DNA of 64,000 nucleotides from Candidatus Parcubacteria bacterium (GCA_018664825.1 JABJNO010000010.1:8832-72831), one strand, 5' to 3'. Shown: positions 12,423 through 15,175, counted from the stretch's first letter. Translations and numbers: made by a program. The notes: generated by a model not told the origin, from the letters alone.

Positions 12423-12617
12423 TAATTATCCCGGCCTGCCGGGATCCCAATCCATGGGATTAATCTATGCAGATATTATAACATTTTTAAAATATTTTTC
12501 AAAGGAGTATTTAAGCCATTTTTGATACTCACTGTCAACTTGACAAAAAGGGCGATTTCTATTAATTTTGAGTCATGTAATGTACGTTCACAACCCTAAA
12601 TAAAGAGAGGTTCAACC

Positions 12618-13634
12618 ATGGATAACAGCAAAACCGTGGTGCTTTCGGGCATCCGGGCAACTGGACAGTTGCATTTAGGCAACTATCTAGGTGCAATCCA
12701 GCATTTCGTAACACTCGCTCAAGATCCTAGCAATGATTGTTTTTACTTCATTGCCAACCTTCATACCCTTACAACCCGTCAAGATCCTCAGCAAATGCAA
12801 ATTGATTTGCGGAACATTGTCCTTGATTTTATGGCTTGTGGTCTGGATCCTGAAAAATCCACGATCTACGCCCAATCGAGCGTTCCGGAACTCAGTGAGC
12901 TAAGCTGGCTCTTGGCTTGTCTGACCCCTGTCTCTGGACTGATGAATATGCATCACTTCAAAGAAAAAAAGGACAGACTTTCTGAAGAAGGTCTAAAAGC
13001 AAACGCTGGCCTACTCACCTACCCCGTCCTGATGGCGGCCGATATTCTCGGCCCTCATGCAAACCTAGTGCCGGTCGGTGAAGACCAGCACGCCCACGTG
13101 GAAATGGCTAGAGAACTAGCCAAACGTTTCAATCACCACTTTGGTGACGGAATCTTTCCTATCCCCAACCTGTTGGAAGGTGAAGGAATTCGAGTACCTG
13201 GTCTGACCGCTGATGGCAAAATGGGCAAAAGTGAAGCTGATAGTGCAATCATGCTCAATGATTCACCTGATGAAGTCGAGCGTAAATTACGCTCAGCTGT
13301 CACCGACCCCCAACGCATGAAGCGTAGCGACCCTGGCGATCCTGAAGTTTGCAACATCTTTACCTTTCACCACCTACTGAGTGAGCCCGAACAAATCGAA
13401 TGGGCTCGCAAAGGATGTACAACAGCTGATATCGGCTGTGTCGACTGCAAGGTAGTCGTTGCCGATCATATCAACAAAATCCTCACCCCTATCCGTGCTC
13501 GCAGAGAAGAACTGCTAGTCAGAGGTATGGATTTTATCGACGAAATCATCCACGAAGGTGGTCTCAAGGCTCGCAAAATCATCGCAGCCAACGTAAAAGA
13601 GGCTAAAGAAAAGATGGGCGTCCCATCTTATTAG
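12618..13634 (+). CDS. trpS: Tryptophan--tRNA ligase
   Basis: Class I HIGH-type motif TGQLHLGNY and KMSKS-type KMGKS. 338 aa. RBS AAAGAGAGG upstream. Its GC content is clearly higher than the flanking host genes. Confidence 0.9.
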   Translation: MDNSKTVVLSGIRATGQLHLGNYLGAIQHFVTLAQDPSNDCFYFIANLHTLTTRQDPQQMQIDLRNIVLDFMACGLDPEKSTIYAQSSVPELSELSWLLACLTPVSGLMNMHHFKEKKDRLSEEGLKANAGLLTYPVLMAADILGPHANLVPVGEDQHAHVEMARELAKRFNHHFGDGIFPIPNLLEGEGIRVPGLTADGKMGKSEADSAIMLNDSPDEVERKLRSAVTDPQRMKRSDPGDPEVCNIFTFHHLLSEPEQIEWARKGCTTADIGCVDCKVVVADHINKILTPIRARREELLVRGMDFIDEIIHEGGLKARKIIAANVKEAKEKMGVPSY

Positions 13635-13662
13635 GTCCTCACTATCCAAAAAGGAGTAAACA

Positions 13663-15108
13663 ATGAATCCCAAAGCGCCCACGGGGGAACGATGGCGATG
13701 GCCCAGTACAGGCATCGATCCAGATCAACTGGCACAAGCTGTGCTGGGCGTCCCCTCGCTCTACGAAACCGAAACTCCTCCGATCTGCTACCCTGGCACT
13801 CCACTCAACCCTAACTTGGTCACATTGGCCAGCGGCATCTTGAGTAAACAACTCAACGCCATCGGCACCCATACCCATCTCCAAGACGACGGAGCTGGTG
13901 GCTGGGAAAAGACCCCTGGTGAAGGTGGTTTCGATGGTCTCCAGACTATGGAGTCCGAAGCTATCTGGATGACTGCCAGTATCTTGGGTGGCACACCCCA
14001 AACTATCGACGGCAATTTTTGCCCTGGTGGTACCGAGGCAAATCTCCAAGGTATGTGGCTCGGCCGTGAGTGGCTTCGTAAGCACATGGCTACTGGTGAT
14101 CAAATTGGTGTCGACAAGAAAGTCGTGGTCTTTACCACTTCCCTGGTCCACTATTCGGTCATCAAGGCTGCCGAGATTCTCGGTTTGGGCTATCATAAAT
14201 GGCAAAACTGTTCTGACTGTGGTGTAAATCACATTTTCAAAGGTCCTGAAGATGGCAGTGGTGTCAACTTTGTTCCTATGAACAGTAAAGGTGAAATGGA
14301 TCCCGAAGCACTGGAAAGTGCTATCCTGGAGAAATATCGCCAAGGTTTCCGCCGTTTTATGATGGTACCGACTGCTGGTACGACTGCGCTGGGATCGGTC
14401 GATCCGATCAACCTGATTAGTCAGGCTATGGACCACGTCCGTAGCAGACACAGCGATGCGCTGATGTACATGCATGTCGATGCTTCCTTTGGTGGCTTTA
14501 CCATTCCGTTTCTCAATCCTGAGCACGGCATGGGCTTTGACACCAATAGCCCCAACCTGATGTCTATGGCACTGGATGCTGACAAGATGGGCCACATGCC
14601 CTATCCTGCTGGCATCTTCCTGTGTCGTAAAAATCTGCAAAGCTACATCGCACGTGATGTGCACTATGTCCGCGGACACCAAGACGATACTGTCTCTGGC
14701 TCACGTTCGGCTCTGGCTCCGATGCTGGCCTGGTACTATTACCAGACCATTGGCATTGACGGTCACACCGAATACGTCCAGAAATGTATTGATCTACGTG
14801 AAGAGCTGGCTCTGATGATCTCCGCTCGCTTCCCTCAGGAACAAGTGGACTTCTTCCCTTGCTCACCGTGGACCAACTTCCTTCCTCTGGAAATCAAACT
14901 CAAAAATGGTAAAATCCCTGAAGACCTAATCGAAAATGGTCACCTCAGCCCTTACCATCTGCGAGACGATTGCTTTCCGTCCAATCCTCACGATGTGAGC
15001 AGTTGCCCCAGGTCTGTCTACAAGATCTGCATCATGCCCCATCACACCCTCTCTCACCTCGAACGCTTCGTCAGCGATTTGGCAACCACGTTTGCCGAAC
15101 ATGGCTAA
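13663..15108 (+). CDS. Group II PLP-dependent decarboxylase (MfnA/tyrosine-decarboxylase-like)
   Basis: GGTEANLQG, DASFGG, and ALDADKMGHMPYPAGIF (PLP-lysine loop closely resembling MfnA DPHKMG.APIPAGGI). GC-rich. RBS AAAGGAG 7 nt upstream. Confidence 0.65.
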   Translation: MNPKAPTGERWRWPSTGIDPDQLAQAVLGVPSLYETETPPICYPGTPLNPNLVTLASGILSKQLNAIGTHTHLQDDGAGGWEKTPGEGGFDGLQTMESEAIWMTASILGGTPQTIDGNFCPGGTEANLQGMWLGREWLRKHMATGDQIGVDKKVVVFTTSLVHYSVIKAAEILGLGYHKWQNCSDCGVNHIFKGPEDGSGVNFVPMNSKGEMDPEALESAILEKYRQGFRRFMMVPTAGTTALGSVDPINLISQAMDHVRSRHSDALMYMHVDASFGGFTIPFLNPEHGMGFDTNSPNLMSMALDADKMGHMPYPAGIFLCRKNLQSYIARDVHYVRGHQDDTVSGSRSALAPMLAWYYYQTIGIDGHTEYVQKCIDLREELALMISARFPQEQVDFFPCSPWTNFLPLEIKLKNGKIPEDLIENGHLSPYHLRDDCFPSNPHDVSSCPRSVYKICIMPHHTLSHLERFVSDLATTFAEHG

Positions 15109-15116
15109 GCACATCT

Positions 15117-15148
15117 AGCCCCCGCCTAAAAAACGGGGGCTTTTTCTT
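15117..15148 (+). terminator. Rho-independent terminator after the trpS-decarboxylase pair
   Basis: GCCCCCGCCTAAAAAACGGGGGC hairpin followed by TTTTTCTT. Confidence 0.8.
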
Positions 15149-15175
15149 ATCACAAAGATTCGCTATACTAAACAT

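Follow-up and report, generated by a model that had tools for sequence, protein, structure and literature searches.

A conserved tryptophanyl-tRNA synthetase-decarboxylase operon in Parcubacteria that looks like a tryptophan-handling module

The DNA analyzed here, referred to as the window, is a 64-kb stretch of a marine Parcubacteria chromosome belonging to the candidate phyla radiation (CPR) (GCA_018664825.1, JABJNO010000010.1:8832-72831; positions are counted from its first letter). Between 12.54 and 15.15 kb it appears to contain a self-contained operon in which trpS, the gene for tryptophanyl-tRNA synthetase (TrpRS), is followed by a gene for a pyridoxal phosphate (PLP)-dependent amino acid decarboxylase. 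Together with a tRNA-Trp gene in many loci, these two genes form a module that is conserved across many Parcubacteria, and the window holds the local copy. No description of a TrpRS-decarboxylase module was found in the published literature searched, and the pair looks like an undescribed tryptophan-handling module. On balance, we lean toward explaining the locus as a conserved Parcubacterial trpS-decarboxylase operon that would handle tryptophan and that would have moved by an old transfer within the CPR, its base composition having since been partly ameliorated.

The genes for TrpRS and the decarboxylase are adjacent amid unrelated flanking genes in loci L050, L053, L055, L056, L057, L058, L060, L062, L016/L066, L069, L070, L019, and L141. 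This linkage is retained across rearrangements and across decarboxylases that are just 28 to 75% identical to the window enzyme. MfnA-like outgroup decarboxylases (≤29% identity) were never found beside trpS in the loci compared. A tRNA-Trp(CCA) gene lies directly 3′ of the decarboxylase gene in L050, L060, L062, and L064, at the place where the window has a terminator, and near the module in L016, L066, L069, and L070. In the window itself, the cognate tRNA-Trp gene (42312-42389, minus strand; anticodon CCA, discriminator G73) is not linked to the module.

Fusion occurs as well: at least 25 clusters of proteins, formed at 90% identity, have a member of the decarboxylase family joined to the C terminus of a eukaryote/archaeal-type TrpRS. 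One example, in L063, is a single open reading frame (ORF) of 801 amino acids on an 18%-GC contig, beside genes for a Rab-like GTPase and a longin protein. The carriers of these fusions are very AT-rich contigs that resemble eukaryote- or giant-virus-like DNA. Eukaryote-type TrpRS proteins related to the fusion proteins are in turn fused to PF01231 (PF00579 plus PF01231), which we take to be the IDO domain, that is, another tryptophan-consuming enzyme. Among three metagenomic proteins (P0315, P0317, and P0319), eukaryote-type TrpRS is found fused to PF01231 and to a YbaK-type editing domain (PF04073). The decarboxylase is linked to two different kinds of TrpRS, and these linkages arose independently; they are therefore strong evidence of a functional connection. 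The earlier note on this DNA had taken an aminoacyl-tRNA synthetase (aaRS) beside an amino acid decarboxylase as a functional pairing, and the recurrent adjacency and the TrpRS fusions support that view.

The window trpS (12618-13634, plus strand) encodes a bacterial-type tryptophan--tRNA ligase of 338 amino acids, which scores 297.7 bits against TIGR00233 (equivalog cutoff, 176.75) over residues 5 to 334 of 338 and matches PF00579 with an E value of 2.7e-64. Its translation contains GQLHLGNY near the N terminus and KMGKS, which we take to be the class I HIGH-type signature and the KMSKS-type loop, respectively. Among named organisms, the nearest relatives come from Patescibacteria (Falkowbacteria, Uhrbacteria, Moranbacteria, and Parcubacteria; 56 to 63% identity), and identity beyond the CPR is at most 44%. 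No second trpS was found elsewhere within the 64-kb window. The protein is a bacterial TrpRS of the canonical kind and probably the cell's working enzyme, and its gene may be the sole trpS of the reduced CPR host.

The adjoining gene (13663-15108, plus strand) encodes a group II (fold type I) PLP-dependent amino acid decarboxylase of 481 amino acids, with a score of 73.1 bits against PF00282 (gathering score, 27). The earlier note had called it MfnA-like, a label that holds in a loose sense only: MfnA is the best sequence match in both NCBIfam and the PDB, but the score against the MfnA model TIGR03812 is 131.2 bits, compared to a cutoff of 299.4, in a two-piece match whose best piece spans residues 204 to 383. 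Membership in the MfnA, PanP, HDC, and GAD subfamilies was rejected, as the protein falls far below every curated subfamily cutoff. Its closest named relatives are Patescibacteria proteins (43 to 50% identity), and the source annotations read "tyrosine decarboxylase/aspartate 1-decarboxylase." An AlphaFold2 model (pLDDT score, 92.3) was matched by Foldseek to many structures of the PF00282 family with a probability of 1.0 and template modeling (TM) scores of 0.64 to 0.73. In comparisons made with this model, identity was similarly low (16 to 19%) to MfnA, alanine/serine decarboxylase, GAD, Trp decarboxylase, and sphingosine-1-phosphate (S1P) lyase.

When 31 diverse family members, fusions included, are aligned, five residues of the decarboxylase show no variation: K308 (in LDADKMG), H163, D273, Y335, and R348. 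From the alignment with MfnA and general knowledge of the family, K308 is expected to be the PLP lysine, H163 the ring-stacking His, D273 the Asp facing the pyridine N, and Y335 the loop Tyr. On this basis the partner enzyme is an alpha-decarboxylase with an intact active site, and it forms part of a separate, TrpRS-associated subfamily distinct from MfnA. A Pfam domain search detected no tRNA-binding domain in it. No phage or plasmid relative above 30% identity was present in INPHARED or PLSDB, and carriage as phage or plasmid cargo was rejected on that ground; matches in IMG/VR consisted of one stand-alone decarboxylase copy in a giant-virus metagenome-assembled genome (36% identity) and two weak matches. 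At L056 (6330-7760), the decarboxylase gene stands beside an intact trpS and is interrupted in frame by TAG at the site of a conserved Trp codon (window sequence, ...LQGMWLGRE...). This codon could reflect a pseudogene, a sequencing error, or something related to Trp decoding. As a single case it was taken as a pseudogene or an error, and UGA/UAG recoding was rejected.

The arrangement of signals around the two genes suggests that they are transcribed together as one unit. A promoter-like site on the plus strand (12540-12568), read from the sequence and putative in function, consists of TTGACA (12540-12545), a 17-nt spacer, and TAATTT (12563-12568). It is absent from the output of a consensus promoter scan because its −10 element matches the consensus at only 3 of 6 positions. 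The pattern TTGACAAAA, 17 nt, and TAAYNT is kept 5′ of trpS in L055, L056, and L139, and the sequence further upstream is not conserved. The trpS ribosome-binding site (RBS) is AAGAGAGG (12603-12610, plus strand). A spacer of 28 nt (13635-13662, plus strand) with the RBS AAAGGAG (13650-13656) separates the two genes, and a terminator scan found no plus-strand terminator within it. Spacers between the two genes are likewise short (16 to 47 nt) in L050, L053, L055, L060, and L141. The operon is closed by an intrinsic terminator (15117-15148, plus strand) of the form AGCCCCCG-9 nt-CGGGGGCU-UUUUCUU, with an 8-bp G+C-rich stem, a 9-nt loop, and a U-tract. Its predicted folding energy is −16.6 kcal/mol, and a simple scan overlooked it because of the length of the loop. 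The two-gene operon with a strong terminator described in the earlier note is thus borne out by the RBS-bearing spacer, the lack of an internal terminator, and the closing hairpin.

The module lies in a tryptophan-related neighborhood, as judged by a T-box leader, a trpD-like gene, and the set of genes found in a distant groundwater Parcubacterium, L016. Immediately downstream of the operon and outside it is an AT-rich gene (15176-15862, plus strand; GC content, 0.27) for a pfkB-family kinase (PF00294). In L016, L066, and L139 its orthologues, likewise AT-rich, adjoin trpD-like and btpA genes. A T-box leader with its terminator (15916-16161, plus strand; RF00230; terminator at about 16100 to 16161) lies upstream of the trpD-like gene. 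The leader (15916-16121) scores 58.9 bits against RF00230 (E = 2.5e-11), under the gathering score of 93, and has an ultrashort or truncated Stem I, Stem II, a IIA/B-like region, an antiterminator, and a terminator. The element AGGUGGUACCGC and the terminator are kept in four loci (the window, L016, L066, and L069). In their alignment, an invariant UGG stands immediately 5′ of Stem II and a UGGU bulge is retained; the specifier would lie in the short Stem I. UGG and UGGU are compatible with tRNA-Trp (G73 or A73) and not with tRNA-Gly. Because it is conserved with an invariant UGG in three other Parcubacteria loci, this T-box is probably tRNA-Trp responsive. At L069, what follows this leader is a set of peptidase, epimerase, and aminotransferase genes.

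The trpD-like gene (16405-17571, plus strand) encodes a divergent member of the anthranilate phosphoribosyltransferase family (PF00591). Its GC content is 0.483, and its GC content at third codon positions (GC3) is 0.481. It scores 145 bits against TIGR01245 (cutoff, 199), and its best PDB matches are all anthranilate phosphoribosyltransferases (E = 1.7e-23). The terminator scan placed a terminator just downstream (17583-17609, plus strand), and no other tryptophan biosynthesis genes were seen near it. The next gene (17646-18455, plus strand), of host-like GC content, encodes a BtpA/SgcQ-family TIM-barrel protein (PF03437, E = 1.6e-59), and btpA also neighbors trpD-like in L016, L066, L068, and L139. 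In L016, the T-box, a GATase gene, trpD-like, a HAD gene, pfkB, btpA, tRNA-Trp, the decarboxylase gene, and trpS all recur.

Proteins identical to those of the window are annotated at NCBI as belonging to "Candidatus Parcubacteria bacterium." Among the products encoded in the window are glycolytic enzymes, CysRS, RF1, and sigma-70-type regulators. CPR bacteria have a minimal metabolism and rely on hosts for amino acids. The junctions of the GC-rich segment and the gene order recur at 99.9 to 100% nucleotide identity in more than 10 independently built assemblies from ENA, JGI, NCBI, and Logan, so the segment is not an assembly chimera. Contigs L001 to L015, which come from different studies and samples, are 99.94 to 100% identical to the window over up to 21 kb, a strikingly clonal population. 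The GTDB representative set contained no match from the window's own species.

The earlier note had reported a jump in GC content and foreign codon usage across the two genes. Windowed GC values of 0.44 to 0.57 at 12.6 to 15.15 kb versus 0.24 to 0.39 in the flanks confirm the jump. At 1-kb resolution, GC content is 0.26 to 0.40 over most of the window and 0.50 to 0.52 at 13 to 15 kb. In 200-nt windows, it is 0.29 to 0.39 at 12.0 to 12.5 kb, just upstream of the island, 0.41 to 0.45 at 12.5 to 12.9 kb (about the first 300 nt of trpS), 0.44 to 0.57 from there to 15.1 kb, and 0.24 to 0.31 at 15.1 to 15.9 kb. The deviant codon usage of both genes is equally clear: trpS has a GC content of 0.484 and a GC3 of 0.475 and the decarboxylase gene 0.519 and 0.556, compared to a median host GC3 of 0.286 over 57 ORFs of the window. 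The GC-rich genes favor C-ending codons and shun ATA, TTA, AGA, and CCA. Codon shares in these genes versus the host are 0.05 versus 0.42 for ATA, 0.04 versus 0.26 for TTA, 0.19 versus 0.45 for AGA, and 0.61 versus 0.17 for ATC.

The other GC-rich segments of the window are the trpD-like gene, 56457-58316, and 60124-62053. Seven of the 12 genes on the plus (minority) strand are GC-rich, versus none of the 45 on the minus strand (Fisher P = 3e-6). A strand effect alone was rejected as the cause, since AT-rich genes are present on the plus strand (pfkB, 46925-47578, and RF1). Translational selection for C-ending codons was likewise rejected, given that genes expressed strongly by the host itself (S2, EF-Ts, GAPDH, and enolase) are AT rich at third positions (GC3, 0.22 to 0.30). 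The plus-strand island at 56457-58316 encodes a sigma-70 region 4 protein and an unknown 220-amino-acid ORF (GC3, 0.44 and 0.39), and that at 60124-62053 encodes a NUDIX protein and an NAD kinase (GC3, 0.45 and 0.50).

The age of the island can be judged from L139, a syntenic sister locus with 90% identity to the window for iPGM, 86% for enolase, 82% for PGK, 84% for trpD-like, and 73% for the decarboxylase. L139 has the same GC mosaic (decarboxylase, 0.49; pfkB, 0.27; trpD-like, 0.50; btpA, 0.35; host, 0.28 to 0.39), and its four-fold sites are just 38 to 52% identical to those of the window in host and island genes alike. An island shared with so diverged a lineage is not recent, and by this comparison the GC excess predates the split from L139. 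In the region of L139 (7838-8187) that corresponds to 12423-13662 of the window, trpS has been exactly deleted (window 12616-13542). The deletion leaves the promoter, a 92-nt 3′ remnant of trpS, and an intact decarboxylase gene, so at least some relatives would have their trpS elsewhere. Across lineages, GC3 exceeds the flank median for trpS in 13 of 14 (mean, +0.16; P = 0.002) and for the decarboxylase gene in 14 of 15 (mean, +0.17; P = 0.001). It is high for trpD-like in 4 of 4 and low for pfkB in 3 of 3. In the GC-rich carriers L141, L055, L050, and L060, GC3 reaches 0.73 to 0.89. By these sequence comparisons, the GC excess did not arrive recently from another phylum; it goes with the module in most of the lineages compared.

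The earlier note had instead seen genes foreign to the host lineage, possibly a self-resistance copy of trpS in a natural-product locus. If the segment were a recent island from outside the host lineage, its trpS being a xenolog or a self-resistance gene that belongs to a natural-product or tryptamine pathway, the deviant codon usage, the restriction of GC-rich genes to the minority strand, and the self-contained form with promoter and terminator would be accounted for. The nearest relatives of both proteins are nevertheless Patescibacteria, with TrpS no more than 44% identical to anything outside the CPR and nesting with the host lineage at the phylum level, an outcome that the note itself had set beforehand as refuting its reading. 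The island is also shared with L139 despite the divergence at four-fold sites. The window annotation holds no biosynthetic genes near the module, which contradicts a natural-product locus, no transposase or integrase genes were found nearby, and the phage and plasmid collections contain no relative above 30% identity. A recent foreign origin is largely refuted, and we consider it barely credible; taken as a whole, the interpretation in the note is supported in part.

In the reading that we favor, the decarboxylase would act on L-tryptophan to yield tryptamine, and the coexpressed or fused TrpRS, often with tRNA-Trp, would keep tRNA-Trp charged while free tryptophan is consumed. The same rationale has been put forward for the tyrS-tdcA and hisS-hdc clusters of lactic acid bacteria. 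The gain to the cell could lie in pH or energy, or in tryptophan depletion or tryptamine acting on a host. The proposal draws on the preserved linkage to trpS, on the TrpRS-decarboxylase fusions and the parallel fusions to IDO, and on the precedent of the tyramine and histamine clusters, of which aaRS genes are a "general feature" (PMC3315439). The history of the module in the window would most likely be an older transfer or replacement within the CPR from a GC-richer Parcubacterium, partly ameliorated since; its direction and age are deduced from the comparisons above. The confinement of GC-rich genes to the minority strand and the conserved promoter-like site and terminator of the cassette speak for an insertion. 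Among close relatives, the trpS-decarboxylase cassette stands in different contexts, is deleted for trpS in L139, and is interrupted by a stop in L056.

Several observations weigh against this reading. The enzyme is equidistant (16 to 19% identity) from Tyr/Asp, Ala/Ser, Glu, His, and Trp decarboxylases, so its substrate cannot be read from homology. No T-box or other riboswitch was found 5′ of trpS at an E value of ≤10, and no linked precursor/product antiporter recurs among the neighbors of the module in the window, L019, L056, L060, and L062; both results speak against a simple system of the lactic acid bacterial type. The island has no integrase, and a search for a tRNA attachment site and for flanking repeats, direct or inverted, gave only short matches at chance level. 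GC3 of the module tracks that of the host (Spearman coefficient of 0.89 for trpS and 0.77 for the decarboxylase), and even where the host is GC-rich (L050, L060, and L068), the module has the higher GC content. The contrast between a trpD-like gene that is always GC-rich, an AT-rich pfkB, and a btpA near or below host level is found in the window and L139 and recurs in the distant L016 and L068, which fits a gene-specific force. In a quartet of taxa of similar GC content, third-position changes on the window branch run toward G or C (W>S, 16; S>W, 5), the reverse of the AT-ward polarity obtained with GC-rich outgroups (S>W, 23; W>S, 3, for trpS).

These same observations on base composition are the strength of a view in which the genes were inherited mainly vertically and their high GC content was maintained by a gene-specific force, such as GC-biased gene conversion at a frequently recombining locus or mRNA/codon selection. 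The nearly universal positive offset of trpS and the decarboxylase gene, GC-rich hosts included, agrees with it, as does L016, where the GC-rich trpD-like gene overlaps its AT-rich upstream gene by 8 nt. Set against it, the window, L139, L140, and L056 branches are all AT-ward with GC-rich outgroups, and the reversed sign of the quartet is what parallel decay would give under parsimony; the polarized substitutions, being outgroup dependent, are only suggestive of amelioration. The low GC3 of the host's highly expressed genes means that the codons of the module are not "optimal" ones, the contexts of the cassette differ in close relatives, relics of it exist, and L062 shows no offset. Gene-by-gene GC mosaics are general in the CPR loci compared. 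We regard a maintained GC content as a serious rival, though less likely than transfer with amelioration.

Other accounts differ over what the pair does. The PLP enzyme could work on the tRNA side, acting on Trp-tRNA(Trp) or mischarged tRNA(Trp) in the manner of SepCysS, SelA, and SepSecS or making an amine for modification of tRNA-Trp. A synthetase, a PLP enzyme, and the cognate tRNA gene in one operon in many lineages would suit such a role, as would the 1:1 stoichiometry and proximity that a TrpRS fusion imposes and the inclusion of nondecarboxylases such as S1P lyase in PF00282. But the alpha-decarboxylase residues (PLP lysine, stacking His, Asp, loop Tyr, and Arg) are invariant, an esterified carboxylate is not removable, and no tRNA-binding domain was detected. 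The conserved residues make action on Trp-tRNA less likely, and we give the tRNA-side account very little credence. That the adjacency is meaningless, a Tyr or Asp decarboxylase of the MfnA/PanP type (e.g., for beta-alanine and coenzyme A) standing beside trpS by chance, appears just as improbable. It has in its favor MfnA as the best NCBIfam and PDB sequence match and the wording of the source annotations. The MfnA and PanP cutoffs are missed widely, however, the linkage to trpS is kept across 28 to 75% identity and was reinvented as a fusion with a different TrpRS, and true MfnA-like matches never adjoin trpS. Tryptamine is a competitive inhibitor of TrpRS (PMC12607914), which makes a role against a host conceivable. 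The decarboxylase would then drain tryptophan and make a TrpRS inhibitor while the producer's own TrpRS and tRNA-Trp sustained its translation. Such a tryptophan-depletion/tryptamine system with self-protection would have the CPR and the eukaryote- or giant-virus-like fusion carriers acting against their hosts, with cassette exchange accounting for the GC level; we hold it to be unlikely, though worth stating.

Several features of the window are unrelated to the module. A 96-nt tRNA (41852-41947, minus strand; Rfam score, 55.5 bits), missed by ARAGORN, contains about 23 inserted nt around its anticodon loop and may be an intron-containing tRNA in a bacterium. Another unusual tRNA (41646-41724, minus strand), called Phe(AAA) by ARAGORN, has an apparent 9-nt anticodon loop (CCUAAAAAC), a C1-G72 pair, and a C73 discriminator. 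Four tandem paralogues of 204 to 232 amino acids (8174-10863, minus strand) have no Pfam match and share leucine-rich "LP(D/K)xL.V.G.L.L" repeats in their C-terminal halves; their copy number differs in L139. Two tandem genes for cofactor-independent phosphoglycerate mutase (2768-5911, minus strand), about 42% identical to each other, are both kept in L139. A 2,535-amino-acid ORF (20303-27910, minus strand) has RHS/YD-repeat (TEN_YD-shell) matches and is split into two genes (1,101 and 1,422 amino acids) in other assemblies; its product resembles a large surface- or toxin-like protein, here in a reduced genome.

An enzyme wired to TrpRS and tRNA-Trp in host-dependent CPR bacteria is likely to matter for managing or manipulating tryptophan, and the fusion of the same family to a different TrpRS in unrelated AT-rich genomes is independent evidence of the functional link. 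If the proposed reaction is right, the pairing of an aaRS with a cognate decarboxylase, a principle seen in the lactic acid bacteria of food, would gain a third amino acid and reach into uncultivated symbionts. The module also carries a caution for genome scans, as a sharp rise in GC content may be long-standing and specific to a gene family within a mosaic CPR genome and need not mark a recent foreign insertion. That trpS, the decarboxylase gene, and trpD-like stand 0.15 to 0.2 above host GC3 in many lineages is a puzzle of base composition in its own right.

The closest analogues of the module are the tyrS-tdcA-tyrP-nhaC (TDC) and hdcA/hdcP-hisS clusters of Enterococcus, Lactobacillus, and Lactococcus. 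In these clusters the decarboxylase is a PLP or pyruvoyl enzyme, the linked aaRS forms its own clade and coevolves, and the whole is a transferable unit (PMC3315439). As in the tyrS-tdcA and hisS-hdc clusters, the cognate aaRS stands beside the decarboxylase in the same orientation, and the linkage is conserved across taxa. Unlike them, the Trp module has no linked amino acid/amine or Na+/H+ antiporter and no T-box leader before trpS, often includes tRNA-Trp, uses a different decarboxylase subfamily, and resides in a reduced CPR host. No Trp version of an aaRS-decarboxylase cluster was described in the literature searched. The archaeal L-tyrosine/L-aspartate decarboxylase MfnA (3F9T) shares the group II fold and is the best PDB match (E = 4e-18; TM score of 0.71 normalized to the query and 0.85 to the target), at just 19% identity over the structure and in a different gene context. 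The window enzyme is about 85 residues longer (481 versus 397 amino acids), with a conserved N-terminal region of about that length (YPGT and NxIGTHT motifs) ahead of the MfnA-aligned core. The tryptophan decarboxylase RUMGNA_01526 of Ruminococcus gnavus (4OBV) belongs to the same superfamily and fold (TM score, 0.68 to 0.71) and catalyzes the reaction proposed here. At 16 to 17% identity it is no closer to the window enzyme than GAD or S1P lyase, so its specificity cannot be transferred.

In vertebrates, gamma interferon coinduces IDO1 and WARS1, and in Deinococcus radiodurans TrpRS II is paired with NOS. These systems likewise couple a tryptophan-consuming or -modifying enzyme to an extra or coregulated TrpRS. 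They differ in their enzymes and organisms, and the coupling in the Trp module is by operon or fusion and the predicted chemistry is decarboxylation. Finally, the TrpRS-A/ORF1/tRNA-Trp(A73) operons of Microgenomates and DPANN bring together a TrpRS, a tRNA-Trp, and a coevolving partner ORF (Mukai et al. 2017, PMC5370408). In those operons an archaeal-type TrpRS supplements the canonical enzyme, and the partner ORF1 does not encode a PLP enzyme; the window module, in contrast, joins a bacterial-type TrpRS to a PLP decarboxylase in a genome whose tRNA-Trp has G73.

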